From IMG/VR virus record IMGVR_UViG_3300044849_000020, positions 1 through 40,338 of that record: a DNA stretch of 40,338 bases; one strand, written 5' to 3'. The DNA is from a virus (taxonomy: Duplodnaviria > Caudoviricetes). A program made the position numbers and the translations under genes. Positions 21,695 through 37,401 of the stretch are shown here, one piece after another (within the stretch, counting starts at the first letter, position 1; every line of letters begins with the position of its first letter). The notes below the pieces were generated by a model, which saw nothing but the letters and a program-made list of their open reading frames with translations, did not search any database and was not told where the DNA came from.

Positions 21695-24600
21695 ATGGCT
21701 GCCAACTGGTTCTTGGATTACCTCGACCGGGCGCGGATGTTCCCCGGAGAATTCCATGACCCGCTCACCGCCGAGCAATTGAAGACGGCCGCGGGGATGC
21801 CTGCCCGCGCGCCGCGCACCCCAACGCGCGAAAAGCCCGCTGCACCCAGCATGACCGCGCCGAGCGGGCCGCTCGCGCCGATGGAAATCCCCCTCCCGCC
21901 GATGCCGTGGAGCACTGCAATCGAGCGGACCGGGGAGCAGGCTGCCGCCCGTATGGCGTCCCCCCTGATTGGCGTGGCCCAAGGGTTGCAAGACCTCACC
22001 GGCCTCCAGCCTCCGCTGATGGACACGGCGCAAAAGATTCTTGCCGATGCGAACGCACGAGACCTCGACTACTCCCCCAGCTACGCCCAGCGCAGTGTCA
22101 GGGCTGCGGGCGGCACGCTGGGGCAGATGCTGCCGCTGATGGGGATGGGTGGCGGCCCGCTGGCGCAGGCGCTGGTGGGCGCCCCGTGGTTCGCTGCAGG
22201 AGCCTACCCCGAGCAGCGGCAAGACCTCGACCCGATGAAAGCCGCGGCTTCTGCCGCACTGACCGGGGGCATCGAAATGCTGACCCCGAGCCCTGTGCCT
22301 TTCTTGCGCAACACCGGGGTGGCGGGCGCGGTGCGGGGTGCAATTGGCGAAACGGGCGAGGAAGTGCTGGAAGACGTGAAGAACCAGCTTTTCCGCGGGC
22401 AGCGCCCCACCGGCGGGCGCGCACTGGATGTGGCCCGCGAGGCTGCGGGGCCTGTCGGAATCTTGAGCCTGATGGGGCTGGGCGGCCGGCGCCGGCCGAC
22501 TGTTCCACATGAAACACAGGGCGAGCTTCCGCTGACCGGCGGGCGCGGCACGCTGGCGAAGACTGTGGTGCCCAAGCTGGTCGCTCCGGTAGCGACCCGA
22601 CACCACAATCAGACCGTGGGCTCGCCCGAAGGCACCGGCTCGACCACTGACCCCAAGACCGGCAAGCGCATCACCAGCGGCGGCTACGCTGTGGGCGTGC
22701 ATCCCGAACTGACCGAACAGGTGCCGGGCGAAGTCATCACCCCCGAAATCGTGGAGAACTTCATCCGCCGCAACGAGGAGACCTACCGCAAGGACTCGGG
22801 GCTCAAGTTCGGCACTTGGCTCAACACCGACAACAACACGACCTACCTCGATGCGGTGGCGATCATCCCGGACCTCGACACCGCCGTTCAGGTGGCGCGG
22901 AACAACAATGAAATCGCCATTTGGGATTTGAAGAACAAGCAGGAAATCCGCATCGACTATGGCATGGGCGAGCAGCTGCCGTTCGACTTCGGCGGCCAGC
23001 GCGCGACGTTCGCCATGCAGACCCCGGACTGGAAGCCGTACCGCCAGCCGGGCAGCGGAGGTGCCGGGCTGCAGTCCAATCAGCCGGGCGGCCACAGCGT
23101 GAAGATCATGCCGCAGGGCGGGAAGTACGTCATCGAGAACTTCGGGTCAAAGTGGGCCACAGCCCCCACGCTTGAAGCCGCGCGCGAACGTGCGAACCAG
23201 CTGATCGCCGAGTTGCCCACGCCCAAGGGCGCGTCTGTCGCCGCCGAACTGGCCGCGCGGGAGAAGTACCCCGTGGACGTCGAAGCCGACCTCGGCATCT
23301 TGGTCAACCCCGTCACGCTCGAACCGCTGACGCAGAACATGCCGGCGCAGCCGCGGGTGGTTCCCCCGTCGCCCCGCCCGGCGCCAGCTGTGGACCTCGG
23401 GAGCACGGCGCCCGAGGCGCAACTGCTTGAAAGGGCTGCCGCGCAGATCAAGCTGCCCACCGGGCAGAACTACAATCGCCCCCCTGTGGACCCGGAGACC
23501 GTCGTGCCCACCCTGACGGCAGTGCCGGGCGGGCACAAGCGTTTCGGCTTCCCGGTGTGGGACTTCACCGGCCGGCAGGCCTTCCTCGGCAATTTCCTCG
23601 ACCCATACATGTATATTGCCGCCACTGCCGAGCCGTCCGAGCATGACTACAAGCGGACTGACGCCCTTTCGACCCACACCGCTATCCGGTGGCTCAAGCG
23701 CACCGATCCTGACTATCTCAACCTGCTGCTGAGCCGGGCCGTGTCGGCATACTACGGCGACGAAACCGCGCGGGCCATGCTCCAGATGGAAGAGGCTGAC
23801 GCCGACGCGCGCACCAAGGGATTCATCGAAGACCTCAACATCGGGCTGCGGTACGACCGCGCGCCTGCCAGCATCCTCGAACCGGAGCAGCGGACGTTGC
23901 TCCCGCTTGGTGAGGTGCCGCCGCTCACCCTCGCGCCGGGCCTCCCCGAACGCTCCGCCAAAGACCGGGAAATCCGCGATATGGACGCGGAAATGCAGCG
24001 GCGGGAGAAGCAGGAGAGCTTCCCTCAAGAGGTGATGGACCCACGGGCCGCCGCCTTCATCGCCGAGCGGCGTGCGAAGGGCGAGGTTCCCACCAACCTG
24101 TGGGCGATTTATGAAGCCGACAACACTGCCCGGCACACGGATTTCTTTACCCGCGATGCAGCCGAGACCTTCCTGCGGTACGCGCAGCAAAAACCTGAGC
24201 CAAGTGAAACGCAGGAGCAAGCACGCAGCGCCTTTATCGCGCCGCGTTTCACCCGGCCTTACGCTCCTCAAGAAGCTGCTGCTCCGACGAGTCCGGGTTT
24301 CGTATACGAAGGGCCGCCGGGGGGACGCAATATCACCAACGCAGCTGTGAGCGAGTTTTTCGATGCCGCGCGCCACGGCAAAATCAGGAGTGACGCGTCC
24401 AGCCGCTCGTGGAAAAAAGGCAACATGGAGGTGCTGGCGAATCCGAACTACGTGAACATGCTCCTGCACGGCCACACGATTGCCACATATGACCGCAACA
24501 CCGGCGATCTCACGTTGACCGATGCCGGGTGGCGGACCCGGACCACGAAGGACCGGCTGAACGCTATTCTCAAGGCCGTCGGGCACCCGGGCATCTATCA

Positions 24601-27600
24601 ACACCGGTTCAAGTGGTATGTCCGCGACCCCGGCTATGGGGAGCTGTGGCACGGCAGCCTGCTTCTCCGTGGCGTGGTGCGCCGGGACACTGGCACTTTC
24701 GCCCACCAGTTGCCCAGCTATGCGTTCAACCTCGCCACGCCGGAAGAGCCCAGCGCCGCGCCGCCCGAGCAGGCACTGCTTCCGGGGATCGGCCCAGAAG
24801 TCCGCGAGGTGAAGGTGACCGGGAAGGAATCGCCTGTGTTCCGGCAGGGCAAGTCTGTGCTCGCGGGAAGCATCGAACACGACTTCCGTGGGGGAGCACT
24901 GGTGATGGGTCCGCCTAACGACTTCATGCTGAAAGGCGAACGCCGCGCGCAGGCGCCTCACGATCTCATTCGCAGCGTGCTCGACTTCGCCCGGGACAAC
25001 GATGTGCGCACGATCATCCTCCCGTACAGCTTCAAGCCGTTCAACGCCGCCTTCGAATATGAAGCCCTGCAGCGTGGCATCACCCCCGCCCCGATGCCCG
25101 GCGGTTTTCTTGCGCTCGTGCAGAACTACTCGCCTGAATATCAGGCCACTTGGGGTGCCCCGGGCTACACGCACAAAGGCGGGGTCGTGCCCGAAACCTT
25201 CGGCGTGTCGGAGGAATTCTTCCGCCAGAATCTCCCCAAGTTCCGTTTCGGCGAAACGGAATCAGTCCTGTGGGGCGAGACGGAAAACGAGCGCGGCGAA
25301 CTGCTGCTGCAAGGCAAAGCCATGCGCCCCTTGACTGCGCCGCAGACTCGCAGCGTGATGGGCTTGCTGGAAGGGCTTGAGCGCATGGGCCTGCCGCCTA
25401 TTTTTGTGGCACGGCTGAAGCGCATCGGACGGGGCGCCTATGACACCCCGAACAACCTCGCGCAAGTGGATTTCATGAATGACACCATGACCATTTCCGA
25501 GGCCATGCTCGCCCGGCTGAGTCCGGATGAAAGCCCGGCGCCGGTGCTGACGTCCGTGATCCACGAACTGGGGCACCTCGCTTCGCTTCACGTCAGCCGA
25601 GACGGAGTGCCCGACGGCCCTCCGATCCGGTCGCCGCTGTTCCACCTTTCGAGCCCCGGAGTGCTGATGCGCTACGCCCAGCTGGCCCAGCGCAAAATGG
25701 GCGAGGGCGGCAAGCTGTCTGAGAACATCAACATCATCCCGCCTGATGATGTGCGCGTCGGCCCCATCATGCGCGAGGTGCTGAACAAGGGCTTCTCCGG
25801 GCACGGGCTCTTGGGCGAACTGATGACGTATCCCGCGCGGGCAGTCAACCTCTACGAAGACCTCGACCACATGCAGGGTGAAGCCTTCGCTCAGGCGTGG
25901 GCGGCGTACTACCTGCACCCGGAAGACCTTCGGAATGAAATGCCGCTGAGCTACAACATGATGAAGGAACTGGACAACTACGCCCGGAATTCCAAGACCT
26001 TCGAAGAGTGGATGACCAAGCTGGAAGCCGCGCTGCATGTGTCTCCTGAGGCTTCGGCGAAGCGCCGCGAAATCGTGAAGAAAGATGTGCTCGGGCCTTA
26101 TCAGGCTTCCTTCTTCCACAGCAACGTGGCGGGCACCGACATCCAGCAGCCGCTGGCTACCGCCAACCTCGACCCCAATCAGCAGCGGTTCCTCGACCGC
26201 TTCATCCGTGGAAACGAGGAGCGCATCTTCGGCGCGCGGCGTGGCGTGCAGAATGCAGAAGCTATCGACCAGCAGGCCGCCGCCTACGTTGCCGACATGG
26301 ACGCCTTGGCCAAGTCCCTCGACGTGCCGCTGGTGGACCTGATGAAGAAGCGCGGAGGCATTGCGATGTCGGCCGCCGAACTGAAAGCCGGGCAATCGCT
26401 GATGTCCGAAGCCGTGCGGCAAACGAAGCAGGCAGCGACCGCGGCGGCTCAGCAGAACGCCGATGAATCCACCGTCGCGGCTTTCATCGAGCAGTACCGT
26501 GGGCTGCAGGAACTCACCGACGAGTTCTTCCGTGCTCGTGCCGAGTGGGGCCGCGCGGGTCAGGCGCTGCAGCGGCAGGCCATCGACTTCGCCGACGCAC
26601 TGAAGCTGGTATCCAAGGCCGGCGGCATCGGCAACGCCAAGGACATCGCCCTGATGATGTCCACGCTGGATGAATCGCAGCAGGCGGCGTTCGCTCGTGC
26701 GATGAAGCAGAAGACCCCCGGGCAGCAGGCGTGGGGCCTGTGGTACAGCTTCATGCTGTCGAACCCGAAGACCCACATCGTCAACCTCACGAGCAACGCT
26801 GTCTACAACCAATGGCTCGGGCTCGACCGGCTGGTGGCCGCGGGCCTCGGCAAGCTGCATGGCGGCGACAAGGTGTATTTCCGTGAAATGGTGCCCACGC
26901 TTCACGGGCTCGCGCAGGGCACGCTCGACGCCATCCAGCACAGCGCCGACTACCTTGCGACCGGCGGGGAAGGCGGCAAGTGGGATGTGCCCGGCGGGGA
27001 GACACAGCGGCTCGGCGCGACCAACCTGATTCCGAGGTTGATGGGCACGGCCGATGCGTTCTTCCGCAGCGTGGCGTTCCATCAGGAACTGCGCCGCCGG
27101 GCGATGCGGCAGGCCATCACCGAGGGGCTGAAAGGCGACTCGCTGTATCAGCGCGAGGAATATCTGCGCACGCACCCCGACGAGTTCGTGGAGGGCTACC
27201 GTGCCGCCGAACGCTTCGCCCGGAAAGCCACCTTCACCGAAGAACTGGGTCCGTGGACCAAGAATCTCGAACGCATGCGCAGCGCCCCCGGGGCGCCTGT
27301 CGCCGCCGGGATCACGCGGGGCACCGTGCCTTTCCTTCGCACCATCGTGAACCTGACGAAGCAGGGCGCGCGTCACATTCCCGGCGCGGCTTTCGGGCTG
27401 CCCGAGGTGCGGAGCGAGTGGCGGAAGGGTGGCGCTTCGCGCGACGTGGCCGCGGCCGAGCAGCTTACCGGCGCGGGCATCATGGCGTTGGGCTGGCTGC
27501 TGGCGGAAATGGGCAAAGCCACCGGCGCCGAGCCGCCCGACCGCACGGAGGCTGCGGCGTGGCGCATGGAGAACCAGCCGGTCAGCGTCAAGGCTGGCGA

Positions 27601-28318
27601 TCAGTGGGTGGGCCTCAACCGCCTCGACCCGCTCGCCACTGTGTTCGGCATCGGAGCCAGCATGCCGATGATCGCCCAGTCCGAGGATCAGGTGGGCGCG
27701 GCGCTCGAAGCCATCAAGCAACTGTGGTTCAGCAAGACGTGGATGACCGGGCTCTCCGACCTCTTCGGCGCAACGGAGTCATACAGCCCGCAGGAGGGCG
27801 AGTCCAAGCTCGTCAACCTCGGCGCGGGGTGGGCCTCCACGCTGGTGCCTGCGGTGATGGGCGAAGCGGCGCGCAATGTGGACCCCTACGCCCGCAAGCA
27901 GCAGGCCGAAGGGTTCGAAGGAAGGGTCATGGGCCGCGTGCCCGGCCTGCGCGAGCAACTGGCTCCTTCGGTCAACGTGCGCGGCGAGCCCATCGAGCGG
28001 CAGCAGTTCCTCGGCCCCGACTTCTTCTCGCCGTTCCCGACCAAGGACGCCACGCAACACGACCCCGTGCTCGCCGAAATGCTGCGCGTGCATGCCGTGC
28101 CCCACACGCTCAAAGGCACGAGCAAGACGGGCAAGCTGACCCCTGAAATGGCGAGCAACTACCAGATGACCTCGCGACAGATCGCATGGCCTATTCTCAC
28201 CACGTTGATCTACAGTGACGAGTATCTGGACGCGGGCGCCGACGAGCAGAAGGACATGATCGAAGAAGTGCTGAAAAAGGCCAATGCGCAAGCCCGCAAG
28301 GAACTGGAAATGGAGTGA
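21695..28318 (+). CDS. large polyvalent internal virion/ejection protein (2207 aa)
   Basis: Multi-domain; HELGH zincin motif; helical C-terminal region with NP.TH.VN..SN, D.FF, PF.RT..N and RLDP motifs typical of gp16-like core proteins. Confidence 0.8.
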   Translation: MAANWFLDYLDRARMFPGEFHDPLTAEQLKTAAGMPARAPRTPTREKPAAPSMTAPSGPLAPMEIPLPPMPWSTAIERTGEQAAARMASPLIGVAQGLQDLTGLQPPLMDTAQKILADANARDLDYSPSYAQRSVRAAGGTLGQMLPLMGMGGGPLAQALVGAPWFAAGAYPEQRQDLDPMKAAASAALTGGIEMLTPSPVPFLRNTGVAGAVRGAIGETGEEVLEDVKNQLFRGQRPTGGRALDVAREAAGPVGILSLMGLGGRRRPTVPHETQGELPLTGGRGTLAKTVVPKLVAPVATRHHNQTVGSPEGTGSTTDPKTGKRITSGGYAVGVHPELTEQVPGEVITPEIVENFIRRNEETYRKDSGLKFGTWLNTDNNTTYLDAVAIIPDLDTAVQVARNNNEIAIWDLKNKQEIRIDYGMGEQLPFDFGGQRATFAMQTPDWKPYRQPGSGGAGLQSNQPGGHSVKIMPQGGKYVIENFGSKWATAPTLEAARERANQLIAELPTPKGASVAAELAAREKYPVDVEADLGILVNPVTLEPLTQNMPAQPRVVPPSPRPAPAVDLGSTAPEAQLLERAAAQIKLPTGQNYNRPPVDPETVVPTLTAVPGGHKRFGFPVWDFTGRQAFLGNFLDPYMYIAATAEPSEHDYKRTDALSTHTAIRWLKRTDPDYLNLLLSRAVSAYYGDETARAMLQMEEADADARTKGFIEDLNIGLRYDRAPASILEPEQRTLLPLGEVPPLTLAPGLPERSAKDREIRDMDAEMQRREKQESFPQEVMDPRAAAFIAERRAKGEVPTNLWAIYEADNTARHTDFFTRDAAETFLRYAQQKPEPSETQEQARSAFIAPRFTRPYAPQEAAAPTSPGFVYEGPPGGRNITNAAVSEFFDAARHGKIRSDASSRSWKKGNMEVLANPNYVNMLLHGHTIATYDRNTGDLTLTDAGWRTRTTKDRLNAILKAVGHPGIYQHRFKWYVRDPGYGELWHGSLLLRGVVRRDTGTFAHQLPSYAFNLATPEEPSAAPPEQALLPGIGPEVREVKVTGKESPVFRQGKSVLAGSIEHDFRGGALVMGPPNDFMLKGERRAQAPHDLIRSVLDFARDNDVRTIILPYSFKPFNAAFEYEALQRGITPAPMPGGFLALVQNYSPEYQATWGAPGYTHKGGVVPETFGVSEEFFRQNLPKFRFGETESVLWGETENERGELLLQGKAMRPLTAPQTRSVMGLLEGLERMGLPPIFVARLKRIGRGAYDTPNNLAQVDFMNDTMTISEAMLARLSPDESPAPVLTSVIHELGHLASLHVSRDGVPDGPPIRSPLFHLSSPGVLMRYAQLAQRKMGEGGKLSENINIIPPDDVRVGPIMREVLNKGFSGHGLLGELMTYPARAVNLYEDLDHMQGEAFAQAWAAYYLHPEDLRNEMPLSYNMMKELDNYARNSKTFEEWMTKLEAALHVSPEASAKRREIVKKDVLGPYQASFFHSNVAGTDIQQPLATANLDPNQQRFLDRFIRGNEERIFGARRGVQNAEAIDQQAAAYVADMDALAKSLDVPLVDLMKKRGGIAMSAAELKAGQSLMSEAVRQTKQAATAAAQQNADESTVAAFIEQYRGLQELTDEFFRARAEWGRAGQALQRQAIDFADALKLVSKAGGIGNAKDIALMMSTLDESQQAAFARAMKQKTPGQQAWGLWYSFMLSNPKTHIVNLTSNAVYNQWLGLDRLVAAGLGKLHGGDKVYFREMVPTLHGLAQGTLDAIQHSADYLATGGEGGKWDVPGGETQRLGATNLIPRLMGTADAFFRSVAFHQELRRRAMRQAITEGLKGDSLYQREEYLRTHPDEFVEGYRAAERFARKATFTEELGPWTKNLERMRSAPGAPVAAGITRGTVPFLRTIVNLTKQGARHIPGAAFGLPEVRSEWRKGGASRDVAAAEQLTGAGIMALGWLLAEMGKATGAEPPDRTEAAAWRMENQPVSVKAGDQWVGLNRLDPLATVFGIGASMPMIAQSEDQVGAALEAIKQLWFSKTWMTGLSDLFGATESYSPQEGESKLVNLGAGWASTLVPAVMGEAARNVDPYARKQQAEGFEGRVMGRVPGLREQLAPSVNVRGEPIERQQFLGPDFFSPFPTKDATQHDPVLAEMLRVHAVPHTLKGTSKTGKLTPEMASNYQMTSRQIAWPILTTLIYSDEYLDAGADEQKDMIEEVLKKANAQARKELEME

Positions 28319-29608: not shown

Positions 29609-29740
29609 TCACAATTTGCGAAGCCACCTGTCAGCCAGCCGACGGATGATGAATCGGGGCGGGGGCTTCAGCAGCCGCATCTTCCGCATCCGGGTGATGA
29701 ACGGCCGCAAGTCCCGGCGGAGCATGGGTGTGGTCTTCAT
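29609..29740 (-). CDS. Arg-rich 43-aa peptide
   Basis: ATGA overlap with the ruvC stop; MKTTPMLRRDLRPFITRMRKMRLLKPPPRFIIRRLADRWLRKL. Confidence 0.45.
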   Translation of the reverse strand: MKTTPMLRRDLRPFITRMRKMRLLKPPPRFIIRRLADRWLRKL

Positions 29741-30213
29741 GCTACGTGCCCCGCGCGCAGCCAATCGGCGATAGCGAGCGCATCGGAGAGGCCATCGTCC
29801 CTTGTGCCCAACGTGATGTCAGGCCATTTGCGCATGACCCACCCCATCGTCTGCTTCTTGTCGCTTGACAGGCTGTGATGCTTCTGCCACTTCTGCGGCA
29901 GCACCAGCTGGTATCCCATGCCCATGCCCCCCAGCACTCCGAGAATGATCCCGAATGACGTGCCAAATGAGAAGGTGCCGACCACTCCCTGCTTGGGCAT
30001 TGCGCCTACCTGCTCCACAGCAACATGCACCGGCGAACCGTAGTGGTTGATGCCGCGCAGTGTGGCGGCGAGCGCACGCGCATCCACCATTTTGCGCCCG
30101 CTGACCAGCCCGGGCATGGTGGGCATCGGCTCCAGCGTGTGGACCACACCCTTGTGGTCGATGGCCGCAATGCCGCCTGAAATACCGGGATCAATCCCCA
30201 CAAAAATCGTCAT
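29737..30213 (-). CDS. ruvC: RuvC-like Holliday junction resolvase
   Basis: GIDPG..GG, VEQV..MP.QG, F.FG...G, P..W.K and DG..DAL.IA motifs. Confidence 0.88.
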   Translation of the reverse strand: MTIFVGIDPGISGGIAAIDHKGVVHTLEPMPTMPGLVSGRKMVDARALAATLRGINHYGSPVHVAVEQVGAMPKQGVVGTFSFGTSFGIILGVLGGMGMGYQLVLPQKWQKHHSLSSDKKQTMGWVMRKWPDITLGTRDDGLSDALAIADWLRAGHVA

Positions 30214-30226
30214 ACTTCACCTCCCC

Positions 30227-32140
30227 TCATGAATACCTGCTGCCACTGAATCCCTCGGCCTCAACCGGCAGGCCGACGGCCCACCCGGGCAACTCGCACA
30301 TCAGTTCCTCGATGTAGGCCACCGTCGGGCCGCCGACGATAGGTACTTCGCATATGGCTTCGTCGTGGACCGTTCCGACCACGGAGTAGCCATGTGCCTC
30401 AAGGCGCAGCAGCGCCCGCGCCATGATGTCCCGCGCAACGGCCTGCGTGGCACCCTGCACCCATTTGCCGCCGTAGCATGACTCCCGGCGCCATTGCTTC
30501 GTCAAGGCGTCCACCCCCATGAAGGACACCGCATCGCCGCCGAACTTTCCGGCCTCGATCCGCGGGTACGGATAGTGGACGAACCGGCCGGAAGGCAGCT
30601 TCATCTTCAGGAAGCGGTCATCGCACACGAAGGTGATGGACTGGAACACTTCGGGGTTCGTCCGGTACGCCACGCCGGGATTCTTCACCGCGGCAACTGC
30701 TGCATCGTTCATCGCGGTCCACAGGCGCGGCACCTTGTGGAACTTGCCGCGGTACGCCCGCACCGCCCGTTCGGCCAACGAGGCATCAGCCTCGATGCCG
30801 TATTTGGCGCATGTGTCAAGGAACTTGAGTGGCCCCATGCCGAAGCCGCAACCAAGCACAGCCTGCTTGCCTAGTTGCCTGTTCGGCGTGATCCGGTCGA
30901 TGGCCTTCGCCATTTCGACGTAGATGTCGGTCCCGCCGGCGAACAGCGCGAGGCCGGGGTCTTTTGCCAGCCACAGCACGACCCGGGCTTCGATGCTCTT
31001 GAAGTCGGCGCCAATGAGCGTGTGGCCCGGGGCGGCAATGAGCATGCCCCTGAGCGCACGCGACACGAACGCCGGTGGCTCCATGTCCCATACCATGCGT
31101 ACCCATTCCTCGTCGCCGGCGAGGATGGCGTGCGCTGCGTCATCCATGACAAGGCCGTTTGCCACGGGGAAATTCTGGGGCTGTATGCCCGCGCCGGACC
31201 AGCGCCCCGTGCCCGCCCCGTGGTACAGGAGGGAGCCCCGCACCCGGCCGTCTTCGTTGGCCCGGTTGAGCATGCTCTCCAGCTTGGCCGTGCTGCTCTT
31301 CGCCAGATCGCGGCGAATCTCCAGCACCTCGCGCACGGCCGGCGGCAGATGCTTACGCCGCAGCGCCGCGCTGATGGCTGCCTTGTCGAAGGACTCCAGC
31401 TGGGGCAGACCATCACGGCACAGTTTATCGTTGACCCAGTTCAGCAGTTCGCCCACCTGCGTGTGGGAAAAGCCGGTAAGCGCCCGCACGATGTTCCCGC
31501 GGAACCCCACAGCGCGCTCCACGAATGCCATGGCTGCACGAACGGCCGCTAGGTCTACTGCTATCCCACGCTCGTTGATTCGAAGCGTCATATCGAAGAT
31601 TTCGGCCTCCAGCGGGGGCAACTCAGGCAGCGTGCGGTGCAGCGCGCGGCAAACCTCGACGTCGGTTGCGCAGTAGTCCGCGAATTCGTTGAGCAGCAGC
31701 CGGTAATCCGGCCAGCGGAGGTGCGGCTCCGTGTGGGGATTGGTCTTGCTGGGGCGCTGCGGCTTCGACAGCTTGCCGATCAGGTAGCTACCGCGCTTGT
31801 TCTTCTGGACGGGCAACCCGAGCGCGTCTGCAGCCTTGCCGAGCCCGCGGGGCAGGGCGCACATGGCCGCCTGTGCGGCCGTATCCACCCATGTGCATCC
31901 GAAGGCCAGCCTCTCGCGGGTCAGGGCGCATCGCTCGAACTCGACGTTGTGGGCCACGATGACCTCGTTGGTGAACATCGGTAGCCCCGTGCCATCGAGC
32001 CACGTCCACGTCTGCACGGGGCCGTCATTCTCCGCCCAGCACAGCACGAGGATGTGCGTGGACGGGTGCTCCCAGTAGCGGTAAGCACCGACCTCGCGCA
32101 CATCGAGTTCGCTGTAGGATTCACTATCCAGATAGATCAT
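30227..32140 (-). CDS. DNA polymerase family A with 3'-5' exonuclease domain
   Basis: Exo LD.E and AHN..FE; TGRWS; motif A DFKSIEAR; motif B RQLGKQAVLGCGFG; motif C VHDE. Confidence 0.95.
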   Translation of the reverse strand: MIYLDSESYSELDVREVGAYRYWEHPSTHILVLCWAENDGPVQTWTWLDGTGLPMFTNEVIVAHNVEFERCALTRERLAFGCTWVDTAAQAAMCALPRGLGKAADALGLPVQKNKRGSYLIGKLSKPQRPSKTNPHTEPHLRWPDYRLLLNEFADYCATDVEVCRALHRTLPELPPLEAEIFDMTLRINERGIAVDLAAVRAAMAFVERAVGFRGNIVRALTGFSHTQVGELLNWVNDKLCRDGLPQLESFDKAAISAALRRKHLPPAVREVLEIRRDLAKSSTAKLESMLNRANEDGRVRGSLLYHGAGTGRWSGAGIQPQNFPVANGLVMDDAAHAILAGDEEWVRMVWDMEPPAFVSRALRGMLIAAPGHTLIGADFKSIEARVVLWLAKDPGLALFAGGTDIYVEMAKAIDRITPNRQLGKQAVLGCGFGMGPLKFLDTCAKYGIEADASLAERAVRAYRGKFHKVPRLWTAMNDAAVAAVKNPGVAYRTNPEVFQSITFVCDDRFLKMKLPSGRFVHYPYPRIEAGKFGGDAVSFMGVDALTKQWRRESCYGGKWVQGATQAVARDIMARALLRLEAHGYSVVGTVHDEAICEVPIVGGPTVAYIEELMCELPGWAVGLPVEAEGFSGSRYS

Positions 32141-32241
32141 CAGTCCTTCCGTCCTTTATTGCTGCCGTTGGGCACCTTGTCATCTGCCACGCGAGCATGT
32201 TCCTCGCTTTTCCCGAGGTCTCCGCACGGCTCCCAGCAGTT
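32140..32241 (-). pseudogene. gene remnant in the leftmost cassette
   Basis: Open frame NCWEPCGDLGKSEEHARVADDKVPNGSNKGRKD* preceded by an in-frame TAG; its stop overlaps the polymerase ATG (TGATG). Confidence 0.5.
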
Positions 32242-32244
32242 CTA

Positions 32245-32331
32245 GCCCAACAGTCCGGTCGAGCCGAGGCCAGCCAGCGGCGTTGGGCTTGTGTTTAGTC
32301 CGTATGGCCCGGCTCACCGCAAGCGTTAGCC
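32245..32331 (+). mobile_element. attC: attC site 1 (87 bp)
   Basis: R'' GCCCAAC, 5-bp spacer AGTCC, L'' GGTCGAGC, CGAGG...CCCG, L' GCTCACC, 6-bp spacer GCAAGC, R' GTTAGCC; unpaired C in L'' and unpaired A give the extrahelical G and T on the bottom strand. Confidence 0.88.
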
Positions 32332-32730
32332 GCCTCGTGTTCCGCCAAGCTCGCGCAGCTTATCGCAAACCAACTGCGGGTCTGTCACGCTTCCGCCCGG
32401 CATCACATCAATGGCTCTGTTCAGCGCAGCCTCCCACGCCTCTCGCCAAATCCGCCACGCCGCCCGGTCGATCACGCTATCGTCGGTCGGTTTGTATGCC
32501 GGGTTCGTGCGCTTGCAAAAAGCCTCAAATTCTTGCCGTTGGTCAAAGTTCACGGCTAACCCTCCATCCGGCGTGTTCGCTCCGCATTCCGCGCACCCCT
32601 CGCCTCGGTGTTCACAAAACCCGCTGCCGGTATATCCACACAGGTTCTTGTTGCTCACGATCACATGGCCGCACGCGGCTCCCGGTGCAGGCATCCCGTG
32701 GCAGTTGCAGGTGTAAGTCGTTTCCATCAT
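32326..32730 (-). CDS. cassette-borne hypothetical protein, apparent two-part fusion (Cys-rich N-half plus helical C-half)
   Basis: RBS GGGAGA; stop TAA lies inside R' of attC1. Confidence 0.75.
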   Translation of the reverse strand: MMETTYTCNCHGMPAPGAACGHVIVSNKNLCGYTGSGFCEHRGEGCAECGANTPDGGLAVNFDQRQEFEAFCKRTNPAYKPTDDSVIDRAAWRIWREAWEAALNRAIDVMPGGSVTDPQLVCDKLRELGGTRGG

Positions 32731-32792
32731 TCTCTCCCTTGGTTAAGTCTGTTGCCCAACAATCCGGTCGAGCCGAGGCCCGCCAGCGTCAT
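32727..32792 (-). CDS. 21-aa linker peptide crossing attC2
   Basis: MTLAGLGSTGLLGNRLNQGRE*; ATG overlaps the upstream TAA and TGA overlaps the downstream ATG. Confidence 0.5.
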   Translation of the reverse strand: MTLAGLGSTGLLGNRLNQGRE

Positions 32793-32840
32793 TAATCCTT
32801 GCCGGTGTTCGTAAGGCCCGGCTCACCGCAAGCGTTGGGC
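32754..32840 (+). mobile_element. attC: attC site 2 (87 bp)
   Basis: R'' GCCCAAC, AATCC, L'' GGTCGAGC, CGAGG...CCCG, L' GCTCACC, GCAAGC, R' GTTGGGC; arms near identical to attC1, central loop divergent. Confidence 0.9.
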
Positions 32841-33046
32841 ACCACGACAGCGCGCCCCCTGTCACCAACCTGAAGGCACAGCCGCAAAAGCTCGGTTCCG
32901 TAATCGACGCGCCACTGATCGCTTGGGTGTTCTAGCAACAGGAACACGACCTTCCCGCGCTCCCCTGACGGGTGCTCAATTGTGTCGCCTACGTGGATGT
33001 CGTTACCTGCGAAATCAGTCCACGGGGCTTTGTTCATCCAGCCCAA
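32792..33046 (-). CDS. cassette-borne hypothetical protein (SH3/YopX-like beta pattern)
   Basis: GGAGG 5 nt before TTG (alternative ATG 33037); D..G.DI.VGD.I motif; reads into attC2 (PNACGEPG). Confidence 0.7.
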   Translation of the reverse strand: MGWMNKAPWTDFAGNDIHVGDTIEHPSGERGKVVFLLLEHPSDQWRVDYGTELLRLCLQVGDRGRAVVVPNACGEPGLTNTGKD

Positions 33047-33068
33047 GGCTACCTCCAGTTCAGCGCCG

Positions 33069-33084
33069 GGGGGCCGAAGCCCCC
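33069..33084 (-). other. GC hairpin with UUCG tetraloop between SSB and the cassette array
   Basis: GGGGGC-TTCG-GCCCCC on the - strand, no U tract. Confidence 0.7.
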
Positions 33085-33095
33085 GCGTCTCGTGG

Positions 33096-33632
33096 CTACC
33101 AGTTGTCGCCTGCGTCCTGCGTCTCGTCGGCGAAGACCGAATCGACATCGACCGAACTGCCGAAGGGCTCTCCGTCGTGGATGAATTGCACGCCGTTGAG
33201 TGCGAGCGCGACACCCTTGGAGGTGGGCTTGTCGAAGACATACGGCGTCACGTTCAGCTTGCCGTAGGCGCCGCCGTAGACCTTCGCCTCGTCGGTAATG
33301 CCGGCCTTGGCCGCGTCGATGACCGGGGGCTTGCGCTTGGTGCGCGCGGTGAAGAACAGCACCCCTGCGCCGAAGCCGTTCACATTGGGCTTCTCGGAGC
33401 CATCACGGATAGGGCGCTTCAGCCCGTGCGGCGGCCGGTTGCCCCACTTGTCCTTAATCAGCTTTTCAATCTGCGCCGACAGGGCCGACAGGTCCGCATC
33501 CTTCTCCACGATCAGGGTGCAGGCGTACATCGGGTCTTTGCCTTCTTCCATGGAAGGCGCAGGGCGGAAAACCTCCGGGAAAGACAAACGGCCTTTCGGG
33601 GTGGTGAAGTTGAAACTCTCGGTGGCGCTCAT
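33096..33632 (-). CDS. single-stranded DNA-binding protein (DUF2815, T7 gp2.5-like)
   Basis: RLSFP.VF.P, P.RDG, VYGG.Y and GV...LN.VQF..DGEPFG motifs; acidic tail ending in an aromatic residue. Confidence 0.9.
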   Translation of the reverse strand: MSATESFNFTTPKGRLSFPEVFRPAPSMEEGKDPMYACTLIVEKDADLSALSAQIEKLIKDKWGNRPPHGLKRPIRDGSEKPNVNGFGAGVLFFTARTKRKPPVIDAAKAGITDEAKVYGGAYGKLNVTPYVFDKPTSKGVALALNGVQFIHDGEPFGSSVDVDSVFADETQDAGDNW

Positions 33633-33635
33633 GGT

Positions 33636-33848
33636 TCACAGTTCCTCAGTAGTGGGATGGGTGGGTACAACACGGTAAAAAGCCTTCCAGAGAACATCAA
33701 TCTCCCGGCGGCTGGTCAACCCGTGCTTGGCGCGCAAGGCGATGAAAGCTGCCTCAACGTCACGGCGCGACGGCACATGGTCTTCCTTGATGGGGACCGC
33801 GCGCCGGTCCAGCGCAACGACCCCGGATGGTTCAACGACAAGAGTCAT
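33636..33848 (-). CDS. hypothetical protein
   Basis: Fills the gap in the operon with tight spacing. Confidence 0.6.
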   Translation of the reverse strand: MTLVVEPSGVVALDRRAVPIKEDHVPSRRDVEAAFIALRAKHGLTSRREIDVLWKAFYRVVPTHPTTEEL

Positions 33849-33850
33849 TT

Positions 33851-34915
33851 TCAGGTTCCTTTCTCGACTTGAAATTCTTCCAGCACGTTGCGCGCCGCCG
33901 GACGTTTATCAGTGCTGGCGACAAGGCGCATCGCGCCGGGGGCGCGCATCACGAGTGAAGCCACGACCTCCGTGCCGACCAGCTTCTCGGCCTGCGCGGG
34001 CGACAGCAGCGTGCGGGGTGCCAGTTCATTCAGCGTGCGGCCGGTCTTCTTCAACTCGCTCAGCGCCTTCCTCTCGTCGATCCAAGCGCGATTCTTGAGC
34101 CCCTGCACCAGCTTGAACCCCGGCACCTCGTGCCCCGACTGCAAACGCCAGATGGCGAACGCCTCGACGCTTTTGAGGTAATCGGCGATGCGCGTGCTGT
34201 TCTCCAGCAGCCACACAATCTGCCCGTCGGTCAGCTGCTGTGGATCAGGCAGCGCCGCCGCCATGCCGGTCGTAAGCTGCGTGCGCCGGTGGAGTTCAGG
34301 GCACGCCGGCTTGCAGGGGCAGAACTGGCACCAGTCTCCCGCGCGGAACGGTGCATCGCTCACCTCGCACGCCTCGATCTCGGCGAGGATGGTATCGCGC
34401 CACACTGCCACTACCCTCGCGGGGTAGACGGTTTCATGCGGGAGGCCGTCACCGACCCGAGGCTGATGGATCACGAACGCCACTTCATCCACGTCATTCA
34501 TGCCCTCGGCGAAAGCCAGCACGGCATACATTTCCAGTTGCGGGTTGTCATCGCCGGGCACGATCACGCCTGCGCCGTATTTGAAATCCGCAACCGTGAG
34601 TCGGCCGCCGAAACTGTAGATCACCGCGTCGGCAGTGCCATGCAGGAGCGGGTTCTCCGGGTCTTGCAGCTTCTTCTCGGCCATCATCACGCCGGGGATG
34701 CTGCGGATGAACTCGACATAAGCCCGGATGTCCGGGTCTTCGGGTGGCTCCCGGTCGTTAATCAGGCAATCGGACGCGATACTGTGGGCCAGCGTGCCTT
34801 CGAGCGAGTACGGCGTGTCCTGCTCGGGCAGATCAAGCTGCTCGGCGAACCGCACGCTCGCCGGGCAGTTGCTCCACCGCGCCCGGGCGCTGGGTGCGAA
34901 TTTGCTGTGGCCCAT
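33851..34915 (-). CDS. DUF2800 Cas4-like PD-(D/E)xK exonuclease
   Basis: HS...PS...RW..CP.S, EGT.AH, GTAD, DFKYG.G, QL..YA, QPR and C.FC..K..C motifs. Confidence 0.9.
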   Translation of the reverse strand: MGHSKFAPSARARWSNCPASVRFAEQLDLPEQDTPYSLEGTLAHSIASDCLINDREPPEDPDIRAYVEFIRSIPGVMMAEKKLQDPENPLLHGTADAVIYSFGGRLTVADFKYGAGVIVPGDDNPQLEMYAVLAFAEGMNDVDEVAFVIHQPRVGDGLPHETVYPARVVAVWRDTILAEIEACEVSDAPFRAGDWCQFCPCKPACPELHRRTQLTTGMAAALPDPQQLTDGQIVWLLENSTRIADYLKSVEAFAIWRLQSGHEVPGFKLVQGLKNRAWIDERKALSELKKTGRTLNELAPRTLLSPAQAEKLVGTEVVASLVMRAPGAMRLVASTDKRPAARNVLEEFQVEKGT

Positions 34916-34917
34916 TT

Positions 34918-35280
34918 TCACTTGACCTTCTTCAACATGTCGATCACCTCTCCGTACTTGCCGGGGTCAATCGCCGACAGCCCCTCGCCGAACTGGGCGA
35001 TGATGTTCTTCGCGGCCGACATCCCGTGAACCTTGGCGAAGCGGTTCAGTTCATCCACCACATCCTGCCGCGTAACCGGGTCCACCGGGATAACCGGCTC
35101 CGGGGGGACATCATCGGGCATGTCGATGATCGCCTGCACCGCGCGGGCGTATCCCTCGTCGGGCGCGGTGGCGAAAGCCTTTTCCATGTTCCGCATTTCG
35201 GGCACTTCCGCCTGCGCCAGTGCTTCCAGCGCGTCGGCGATGCGGTTAAGGGCCTGTTCAACTCCAGTCATGTCGCTCAT
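34918..35280 (-). CDS. hypothetical protein of the replication cluster
   Basis: Small helical C-terminal domain (G...A..II..FG...LS.I....Y) usual upstream of DUF2800. Confidence 0.7.
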   Translation of the reverse strand: MSDMTGVEQALNRIADALEALAQAEVPEMRNMEKAFATAPDEGYARAVQAIIDMPDDVPPEPVIPVDPVTRQDVVDELNRFAKVHGMSAAKNIIAQFGEGLSAIDPGKYGEVIDMLKKVK

Positions 35281-35513
35281 TTCGTTTCGTCCTTCCAGAT
35301 CAGGTACATCGGGTTTGTCGGGTGCTCTTCATAGTGGCCGTGGTACTTGCCGGCGCTGAACTCCAAGGTAGTCGGCGAGTGCAGCCACAGCACGCGACCG
35401 GCGTAGGGGCCGCCCTTGCACACGTAGGGGATGCGCCCGGTCATCACGTCGGGGGTGGGCTCTTCCTGCTGCCCATGGAAAAGCCATTTCAGCCATTCAA
35501 TCAATCTGCGCAT
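35277..35513 (-). CDS. hypothetical protein
   Basis: GGP..G motif; ATGA overlap with the downstream gene. Confidence 0.65.
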   Translation of the reverse strand: MRRLIEWLKWLFHGQQEEPTPDVMTGRIPYVCKGGPYAGRVLWLHSPTTLEFSAGKYHGHYEEHPTNPMYLIWKDETK

Positions 35514-35516
35514 ACT

Positions 35517-35774
35517 TCATTTCTCCATGACCACAAGGTTGCTTTTGATCGCCCAGTCCAGCAGCGGCCCGTCGTAAAAGACCGCGGGGATGGTGGGCAT
35601 CTTCATCCACGCGCGGACATCGAGTTCTCCCTTCACCGTGGTGATCGGGCTGAACTTTCCATTGGCGTAGAACGCCGTGATCGGGGCGAGGTAGCCCCGG
35701 GTTAGGACAAGCAGGTAATCCGACTCGTCTTCCTCGTTCACCGGCGGGGTGAACTCCGGATACGGGAACCACAT
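35517..35774 (-). CDS. DUF551-like hypothetical protein
   Basis: True start ATG 35774; W.......P...YL and V.AWM..P motifs. Confidence 0.65.
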   Translation of the reverse strand: MWFPYPEFTPPVNEEDESDYLLVLTRGYLAPITAFYANGKFSPITTVKGELDVRAWMKMPTIPAVFYDGPLLDWAIKSNLVVMEK

Positions 35775-36526
35775 CACGACTGCCCCACATACAGTGAGGT
35801 CAGCTTCTCGCGCAGCATGGTCATGCCGCCCGAACAACGCTGTACCGGCGTTCCCGTGGCCCGGATCACCTCCTCGACCGCGTGGCTTATTTTCGACGTG
35901 AAGGTGAAGGCATGGTCCACTTTCGACATCGACTTCAGCTTCTGCAGGCTCCCTTCGGAGTCGAAGAACCGCAGATCGAACACTTCGGAGAACTCGCTGC
36001 TGATAAGCCCGGCCTGCATCGGCAGCAGCCCCGCTATCAGCACTGTGGGCTTCCTCGGGGATGCCTTGGCTTGCTGCGCCGGGTGGATGCTCGGGGCCAC
36101 GACTTCGTTTGCCCATTTCTCCACCAGCCCGTTCGAGAACGAAGCCAGCTGCTCTTCAATCTCGGCGCGCATGGCCTCGATCATCAGCGTGGCGATGCGC
36201 CGGCCAATGAGCCGGGCCATTCCGTCCAGCCCGTCCATCCCCGCGAGCGCCGGTGCGGCAAAAGGCAGCGTCACCGCAGTCCGCGGGGGCGTGGGTTGCT
36301 CTTCTGCCATGCCAAGAGGGCCATATGTGAACCGCCCGCCGGTCTTCGACGCCACGCGGCAGATTTTGCCTTGGGCATGGGCCGCCGACAGAACCGTGGA
36401 CAGCTTCCGGCCGTCTTCTATCCACGACAGCTTCTGCGTCTCGGGGTACTTCATCAGTTCCGCTGCGCTCACCATCCGGTTCGCCTGCCGCACTAGGGCT
36501 GCTACCTGTTCAACTTGCGATGCCAT
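35774..36526 (-). CDS. hypothetical protein, wHTH-like N-terminus and DUF2325-like C-terminus
   Basis: RBS AAGGAAG; VLIAGL...D..F.FTS.ISH...G.PV....GG flavodoxin-like pattern. Confidence 0.65.
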   Translation of the reverse strand: MASQVEQVAALVRQANRMVSAAELMKYPETQKLSWIEDGRKLSTVLSAAHAQGKICRVASKTGGRFTYGPLGMAEEQPTPPRTAVTLPFAAPALAGMDGLDGMARLIGRRIATLMIEAMRAEIEEQLASFSNGLVEKWANEVVAPSIHPAQQAKASPRKPTVLIAGLLPMQAGLISSEFSEVFDLRFFDSEGSLQKLKSMSKVDHAFTFTSKISHAVEEVIRATGTPVQRCSGGMTMLREKLTSLYVGQS

Positions 36527-36576: not shown

Positions 36577-37401
36577 TCAAAGGTGGGTCTTCAGGGCATC
36601 AGCCAGCACGAACAGCGCCTTGTTCAGCTTCTGGTCCGCGCTGATGTCCGTGATGGCCCGGGTGCGCAAGCGGCGCCCGGACTGTCCGGTTCCCCGCACG
36701 CCGCCCTTCTGCAGATTCTCCTGCACCACGTTGAGCGTGGTCCACATATCGGGGCGGGGCAGGTTTTGCCGGCCCTGCTGGGCATCGAGCCAACGGCGGG
36801 GGCGCAACAGCACCTCGGGCCTGACGTCGATGGTGCTCTCGCGCAGTTCGAGCGCCGCGGTCGCAAAGGCCACCTGCGCTTCCACAGGCAGCATGATGCC
36901 CCGGTACTCCTCGACCTTCTGCAGCACCTTGGACTGTTCATCCAGCACGGAGAACACGCCTTCGATAACGTCGCTCACGTCGCCGACGTGCTTGATGCGG
37001 AATCCGGCAGATTGCCCTTCGACCGGGACGGTCAGGCCGTTGGAGCAGACCAGCCGGTACAGCCCGGCGTCAACGGCGAAGGACGCCGCGCGGTCATGGC
37101 TGTTGGTCAGCAGCACCTGAAAGTAGGAGTCGCCGACCAGCCGCTCGGGGCTTTGCTCCAGCGCCGAACGCTGCACCAGCCGCAGTTCGTGGCGGGTGAA
37201 CTCGCGGCGATCAGCGGAGCGGGTGCGGGACTGGCGCACGGACACCGGGGCCAGCCCTTCTTCAAGGCAGCGGTCCAGAACGTCCCGCGTGCTGATGAAC
37301 GAGTAGCGTTCGGACACGCCGCCGTGAGGGCGCTCGGCAAAGACGCTGGGCGCAATTTCGGCGATGCGGCTGAGGGAGAGGGGTTGAATTTGTGCATACA
37401 T
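36577..37401 (-). CDS. DUF932 (DUF945/YubP-like) family protein
   Basis: APSVFA..PH..VS.RY.FI.T and LL.NSHD...SF...AG.YRLVC.NGL motifs. Confidence 0.88.
   Translation of the reverse strand: MYAQIQPLSLSRIAEIAPSVFAERPHGGVSERYSFISTRDVLDRCLEEGLAPVSVRQSRTRSADRREFTRHELRLVQRSALEQSPERLVGDSYFQVLLTNSHDRAASFAVDAGLYRLVCSNGLTVPVEGQSAGFRIKHVGDVSDVIEGVFSVLDEQSKVLQKVEEYRGIMLPVEAQVAFATAALELRESTIDVRPEVLLRPRRWLDAQQGRQNLPRPDMWTTLNVVQENLQKGGVRGTGQSGRRLRTRAITDISADQKLNKALFVLADALKTHL

Follow-up and report, generated by a model that had tools for sequence, protein, structure and literature searches.

With a probability that we put at about 0.65, the interval between the single-stranded DNA binding protein (SSB) gene and the family A DNA polymerase gene of the phage DNA analysed here (the window, a whole stretch of 40,338 nt; IMG/VR record IMGVR_UViG_3300044849_000020) is a decayed, integrase-less integron-type cassette array, in which the genes lie on the bottom strand of the attC sites, each hairpin precedes its own gene, and the hairpin loop is likely a frame-locked stop/restart signal for whichever gene recombines in front of it. 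We also put forward, tentatively and at slightly less than even odds, a broader model in which phages run an integron class of their own, with inverted cassette genes and the attC hairpin as the standard translational connector: genes would leave through one exit frame, the next hairpin would give the stop and an overlapping start, and any cassette order would make up one coupled operon with the integrase, or in the present case an essential replication gene, at its end. An earlier note on this DNA had described the loop as a built-in stop/restart module. The enrichment of stops and of stop/ATG overlaps in a fixed frame speaks for that proposal; the relay peptide, the reading of TTR as Leu and the coupling to the polymerase, which formed part of it, were not upheld.

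The cassette array in the window

The record is a 40-kb linear viral DNA with an estimated completeness of 56%, and a Pfam scan places genes for a P22-like portal, a capsid protein, the SSB and the family A polymerase in the window. The SSB-polymerase interval of ~950 nt, read on the minus strand, is the site of the stop/start relay (Table 1). It holds two full attC sites (32754-32840 and 32245-32331), one collapsed site (32554-32581) and half sites at 32167 and 33041. With two full sites 509 nt apart (less than 3 kb) and no integrase, the locus has the make-up of a CALIN, in a record that may be incomplete. A PF00589 search of this record, estimated to be 56% complete, detected no tyrosine recombinase, and the window lacks the intI and attI adjoining the array that define a complete integron. 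Scanning for promoters and terminators returned nothing within the array, Rfam gave no match over 30000-36000, no Pfam family was found for the cassette ORFs, and only the 81-aa gene among them has a PHROGs match. A RuvC-like Holliday junction resolvase gene (phrog_1770; 29737-30213, minus strand) lies directly behind the polymerase, a DUF932 gene (36577-37401, minus strand) is located in the early region, and a gene for a 2207-aa protein with a Kyanoviridae Gp96 domain (21695-28318, plus strand) closes the virion gene block.

Table 1. Features of the SSB-polymerase interval and its flanks, in the order of minus-strand reading
Feature	Position	Strand	Basis
Phage ssDNA-binding protein gene (Enc34 type), upstream flank of the array	33096..33632	-	PF10991, E 8e-37
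6-bp G+C hairpin past the SSB stop, without a U-run	33069..33084	-	sequence, fold
SD GGAGG (33056-33052), 5 nt, in-frame TTG (33046) in a degenerate R'' half box	33041..33056	-	sequence
81-aa cassette gene, no assigned function	32792..33037	-	19 homologues with variable tails; phrog_19209 over residues 2-66
attC-a (attC2 of the earlier note): R'' 32754-32760, L'' with extra base, 47-nt variable region, L', R' 32834-32840	32754..32840	+ (top)	boxes, fold; geometry per PMC2727003
TAATG, where the upstream gene's stop and the loop ATG overlap	32790..32794	-	predicted unpaired 13-nt RNA loop, 3 nt behind AAGGA
21-aa frame through the R'' arm (TTG 32759 = Leu), ending in ATGATG	32727..32792	-	ORF reading; ATG in 1/11 sibling sites
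134-aa ORF with own SD (GGAG 32737-32734), stop at the TAA of the attC-b R' box	32326..32730	-	homologues
Collapsed attC remnant (R'' 32554-32560, crossover G32575|TT), joining two genes in frame	32554..32581	+	R'' = exact complement of the R' box at 32325
attC-b, sibling of attC-a (82% identical, 83 nt); predicted crossover G32325|TT	32245..32331	+	sequence comparison
Short cassette body, likely a 3' gene remnant	32174..32244	-	27/31 nt match to L028 cassette junction
Truncated attC: R' box 32167-32173 and about 14 nt of arm	32138..32173	-	sequence; L028 match
Family A DNA polymerase gene, downstream flank of the array	30227..32140	-	PF00476, E 6e-16

The site attC-a has R''/R' and L''/L' as inverted box pairs and an extra base on its R''-L'' arm, which identifies it as an attC site, with a predicted crossover at G32834|TT. 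Its hairpin fold has z = -4.5 and -5.7 on the two strands, and equal stability was reached in 0 of 200 shuffles. According to the accessible part of PMC2727003, the strand polarity of attC is set by the extra base together with the conserved G that follows the AAC in R'; therefore the plus strand is the top strand here and all genes lie on the bottom strand, for which reason the R''/R' labels of the earlier note are correct. The canonical gene cassette, a top-strand ORF with attC at its 3' end, is not what is found.

The upstream gene reads into attC-a exactly as had been described. The homology of the 81-aa gene to its 19 relatives stops at the AAC junction, beyond which the tails vary, and its own 15-aa tail, from the Asn onward, is encoded by the neighbouring attC and ends as PNACGEPGLTNTGKD at TAA 32794-32792 (minus strand), in the loop. 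The loop ATG (32792-32790) opens the 21-aa frame, as claimed, and the TGA of this frame (32729-32727) sits in ATGATG and overlaps both ATGs of the 134-aa ORF, so that stop and start overlap, in the manner of translational coupling, at TAATG (32794-32790) and again at ATGATG (32730-32725). The statement that the box frames are consistent holds for four of the seven codons, which fall in ORFs whose translation is plausible (Asn at 32834 and 32575, Leu at 32759 and 32559), and fails for the other three: TTG 33046 lies upstream of ATG 33037, where the homologues begin, and is a possible start codon or untranslated, not Leu; the frame of TTG 32250 has no upstream start; and AAC 32167 is Asn only in a 33-codon frame that has no ATG and matches the 3' end of an L028 gene. 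One further box codon, AAC 32327-32325, had not been included; the gene there stops at the box TAA.

In the 134-aa ORF two cassette genes, a Cys-rich one and one of 75 aa, are fused in frame. Homologues of its C-terminal half are stand-alone proteins of 61-72 aa, and the gene of this second half is a separate cassette in the viral locus L028. At the other end of the array, the first cassette appears to have lost the remainder of its own attC and to keep only the degenerate R'' half box. In several distant relatives the SSB gene is likewise followed by a hairpin-plus-SD spacer. We observed that the hairpin and GGAGG at 33041-33084 resemble the spacer found before the polymerase gene of distant relatives; the array may have been inserted between the old polymerase SD and the polymerase start, which would provide the first cassette gene with an in-frame TTG. 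Our search for close relatives of the window phage with DNA context found none. Distant polymerase loci have the SSB gene upstream in 40/80, with a gap of less than 100 nt in 13, and no attC-like pattern occurs in the SSB-polymerase gap of these 40.

Towards the polymerase the chain of overlaps breaks. The site attC-b has the boxes and folds weakly (z -1.8 and -0.9), and its loop carries the AAC-frame stop and no ATG. The AAC frame of the truncated attC ends at TGATG (32142-32138), overlapping the polymerase ATG, and a possible weak GTG start at 32190 would give 16 codons up to this overlap; no ATG-started ORF in the ~185 nt between links the 134-aa gene to the TGATG, and the polymerase start has its own purine-rich leader. 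The continuous coupling to the polymerase that had been proposed is thus not seen, and the array as it stands gives no demonstration of the proposed absence of polarity on the polymerase, because attC-b has no loop ATG and no ATG-started frame reaches the TGATG. The half site at 32167 had also been considered as an attI or a bare genomic target, and this was dropped because it matches an attC arm, not the attI-like junction, of L028.

Stop and start codons in attC loops

Degenerate patterns recovered at least 283 viral sites in at least 180 loci and at least 140 sites in at least 91 loci of bacterial and archaeal genomes, and the same patterns gave no false attC site in 2.2 Mb of reversed sequence; the site finder misses many sites, calling one in L028, where more are visible by eye. 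Among the matches listed, the longer ORF is on the bottom strand in 211/270 and 187/260 viral flanks and on the top strand in 92/133 and 103/128 genome-site flanks, and an SD plus ATG stands behind the 283 viral sites 96 times on the bottom versus 6 times on the top strand. The frame of the upstream gene could be called, by a heuristic of our own, in 135 of these 283 viral sites among the matches listed. In this set, 60 of the 135 upstream genes read past the box, all with AAC as Asn, and 36 of the 60 stop in the loop; genes in the xAA frame stop in the box in 48/49 cases, and those in the ACx frame stop before it in 22/23.

Families were counted with one site each at 80% identity and loops of at least 35 nt. 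Among the matches listed, the loops of 76/116 viral families have an AAC-frame stop (shuffles 34.8 ± 4.0, maximum 45), 32/116 have a stop overlapped by an ATG (7.0 ± 2.9, maximum 15) and 27/116 have an SD plus ATG (7.3 ± 2.6), and a plain ATG is weakly raised (74/116 versus 60.5 ± 3.7). Among these listed matches, neither the two remaining frames nor the top strand nor the 56 genome families had an excess of stops or overlaps, with the exception of one genome top-strand frame at the upper edge of the shuffle range; when all 198 viral sites listed are taken, the top strand has a small AAC-frame overlap excess (12 versus 5.2 ± 2.1, maximum 12). In a hold-out set of 50 new families, less than 80% like any earlier viral or metagenome site, the AAC-frame stop is present in 41/50 (shuffles 18.3 ± 3.0) and is overlapped by an ATG in 22/50 (5.0 ± 1.8). 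Single-linkage clustering of the listed loops at 70% leaves 35 clusters, with stops in 19 (11.5 ± 2.2) and overlaps in 6.4 (2.5 ± 1.5), and at 62% nearly all families merge; harsher clustering weakens the AAC-frame effect without reversing it. In viral loops shorter than 35 nt among the matches listed, site length is strongly phased (53/85 in one class modulo 3), and the AAC frame stops within the site in 70/85.

The enrichment and frame bias anticipated by the earlier note are therefore present in both the discovery and the hold-out set: stop, stop-overlapping ATG and SD plus ATG are enriched in viral attC loops on the bottom strand only, the stop and the overlap only in the AAC=Asn frame. 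This excess overturns, at the family level, a chance origin of the loop signals, and judged on these statistics the stop/restart signal genuinely recurs across phage attC sites.

It might be argued that the AAC-frame stop alone is selected, since it spares the upstream protein a long junk tail, and that the loop starts are ordinary SD-led starts at which ATGA is a by-product without reinitiation. Many loop starts do have their own SD, an A after ATG is a common start context, and 78 of the 128 AAC-frame loop stops among the matches listed have no overlapping ATG. Yet given a loop stop, an ATG overlaps it in 50/128 cases in the AAC frame versus 19/91 in the other frames among the same matches (p = 0.005, the sites not being independent), many overlapped starts have no SD, and at some attI-like junctions (L545, L547) the same AAC-frame stop adjoins the intI start. 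We consider selection for the stop alone unlikely.

A fuller version of the relay, in which the 21-aa peptide is selected and needed for the next gene and the coupling continues to the polymerase, seems to us decidedly unlikely. Both overlaps in the window are exact, the predicted unpaired loop would expose AAGGA and UAAUG, and short attC ORFs have been reported to aid downstream translation (Jacquier 2009, as given in the accessible part of PMC8876359). Relays of the overlapping kind also occur elsewhere, five in five families among the matches listed, with L032 sharing the TGATG/ATGATG layout, and 6/10 siblings of attC-a have a TTG overlapping a TGA at this position. What weighs against it is, in the first place, the distribution of the ATG. 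Viral and metagenome scans gave 15 distinct junctions, the two of the window included, of which 11 share the attC-a loop type; the AAC-frame stop is identically placed in 10 of these 11, the eleventh lying at a contig edge, yet the loop ATG occurs in the window only (1/11), the others having TGAAG (6) or TAAAG (4). No match to attC-a was found in 50,697 annotated phage records. In the wider family an ATG stands in the TTR=Leu frame in 7/20 distinct sites, so this frame is in use there and the ATG of the window is nevertheless private; the relay here is, by alignment with siblings that have AAG, a private one-base variant.

In the second place, relays are rare. The 66 viral sites among the matches listed with an ATG at or near the AAC-frame stop comprise 40 long frames, of which 2 leave the locus at its edge, together with 5 overlap relays, 2 near relays, 16 short frames without a relay and 3 ending in the loop. 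The 22 coupled hold-out sites contain no relay and 20 frames that are long or reach past the locus edge, so that a relay peptide is not the rule. The form TRATG is itself uncommon (3 versus 47 ATGA among the matches listed). Hand-over to the next gene's own start takes place at the background rate, in 4/29 frames with a loop ATG versus 25/259 without (p = 0.51, among the matches listed). The first hand-over, the stop/ATG in the loop, thus looks selected, and the second, which defines a relay, does not, because the loop overlap is enriched and the next-start hand-over is at background; a conserved leader peptide is not what the siblings and these frames display. TTR=Leu is likewise no fixed reading of R'': the second arm in long loop-started frames among the matches listed is read as GTT=Val in 23, TTR=Leu in 13 and TRR in 4, and the frame is fixed on the entry side only. 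The 21-aa peptide of the window is probably made at some level, and it is likely dispensable, because an SD of its own precedes the next gene and the chain stops short of the polymerase at attC-b.

Returning to the frame-locked stop/restart model, each cassette on the mRNA opens with the hairpin that belongs to it and closes within the AAC of the box that follows. The incoming hairpin supplies, as the statistics indicate, a stop in the AAC=Asn frame; the ATG overlapping this stop, nearly always as ATGA, is enriched and may let the terminating ribosome reinitiate. Reinitiation would usually start the cassette's own gene, with the second arm coding for its N-terminus, and translation of the arms would unwind the mRNA hairpin, shorten untranslated gaps and limit polarity.

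Mobility of the cassettes and the integrase

In 6 of 17 pairs of viral loci sharing the downstream side, an identical attC and downstream gene follow upstream DNA that is unrelated, and the two loci diverge at the R' box; as counter-cases, attC identity is below 0.7 in 6/17 of these pairs, and the attC is identical in 1/6 pairs sharing the upstream side. Other contigs from run X2 stop matching the window at 32327 and 32576, which are predicted crossover points, so that breakpoints of both kinds place the cassette boundary at the G|TT of the R' box. A joint skipping a cassette was not found in the contigs of two DNA runs from which the window may derive, contigs being assemblies that drop rare variants. 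Tyrosine recombinases are encoded by 11/49 viral records with such sites; the 8 best of these matches all score best on the integron integrase model, and 5/8 exceed the TIGR02249 cut-off as partial sequences. Integron integrases over this cut-off were found in 3/50 further records, and the carriers of such integrases include all three viral records with near-identical siblings of the window sites. An attC lies within 1.5 kb in 7/11 integrase loci, its bottom strand always being the intI strand, and the cassette genes are therefore read towards intI. Shuffling in the window may be done in trans by the integron integrase of the host or of related phages.

L028 (1-4700, record G001; also G002 and G003) is a complete phage-borne integron, in which a long bottom-strand cassette row is followed by an attI-like junction and intI on the same strand, and a second tyrosine recombinase gene lies behind intI. 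It has attC-a, one cassette gene and one junction in common with the window. At L545 and L547 the final cassette gene enters the attI-like junction with its AAC read as Asn and has its TAA directly or two bases before the ATG at the intI start, which suggests that the integrase itself may be translationally coupled at these junctions. In the virus Rctr41k an IntI-like gene ends a gene row, and no upstream sites were called by the finder, which misses many.

Some observations might be taken to mean that the hairpins are relics without activity, or inverted repeats that arose by chance, with a coincidental codon pattern: three of the five junctions in the window are degraded, and the record has no integrase. 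This we regard as highly improbable, since near-identical sites accompany other genes in other contigs, breakpoints fall exactly at the crossover, integrases are present in sibling records, no false site was found in 2.2 Mb of reversed sequence, and the frame-specific excess recurs in the hold-out set.

Relation to known integrons and significance

The phage sites share with integron attC, as described in the accessible part of Bouvier et al. (2009, PMC2727003), the R''/L''/L'/R' boxes, the extra base on the R''-L'' arm, the conserved G after the R' AAC on the bottom strand, the crossover at R' and, in related records, an integrase gene on the bottom strand. They differ in that the genes are on the bottom strand, and the site precedes its gene and codes for parts of two proteins; the phage array is also read towards the integrase. 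In the current view, integron cassettes point away from the integrase and are expressed from Pc, and expression of a downstream cassette depends on translation of those upstream of it, according to the accessible part of PMC11511950. The same source reports that attC deletion altered downstream expression in a minority of cases in class 1 arrays, which counts against our preferred explanation.

Phage CALINs (Qi et al. 2023, PMC9892861, accessible part) likewise have at least two clustered attC sites in a phage without an integrase; their example TJE1 differs in having its genes on the top strand. In TJE1 (L559, HQ225832; 77-280 and 318-1046), of canonical orientation, we observed that orf1 and orf2 nevertheless read into attC, with the AAC of R'' as Asn and the stop inside the site. 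The accessible part of that paper contains no discussion that we found of gene versus site strand or of loop codons. Short ORFs in attC, and ORF-11 and ORF-17 in attI1 (Jacquier 2009; Hanau-Bercot 2002; through the accessible parts of PMC8876359 and PMC11511950), help the next cassette by termination-reinitiation, and the 21-aa frame of the window has the same arrangement. These known cases are top-strand and from class 1 integrons, and are termed anecdotal in the accessible part of PMC11511950; the phage signal, in contrast, sits on the bottom strand in a locked frame, occurs widely, and in most cases opens the gene itself and not a short peptide. Both phage CALINs and attC-borne short ORFs have already been published, and a literature search that included the accessible part of bioRxiv 10.1101/2022.09.11.507474 and covered subscription journals thinly found no description of phage cassette genes that lie on the bottom strand and carry loop signals locked to one frame.

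If the model is true, stop and start codons written into a recombination hairpin would be a natural answer to polarity in shuffled operons. It would also explain why many small phage proteins vary in their N- and C-terminal tails, a point of importance for annotation, and site-specific recombination would be a source of the mosaicism of phage accessory genes.
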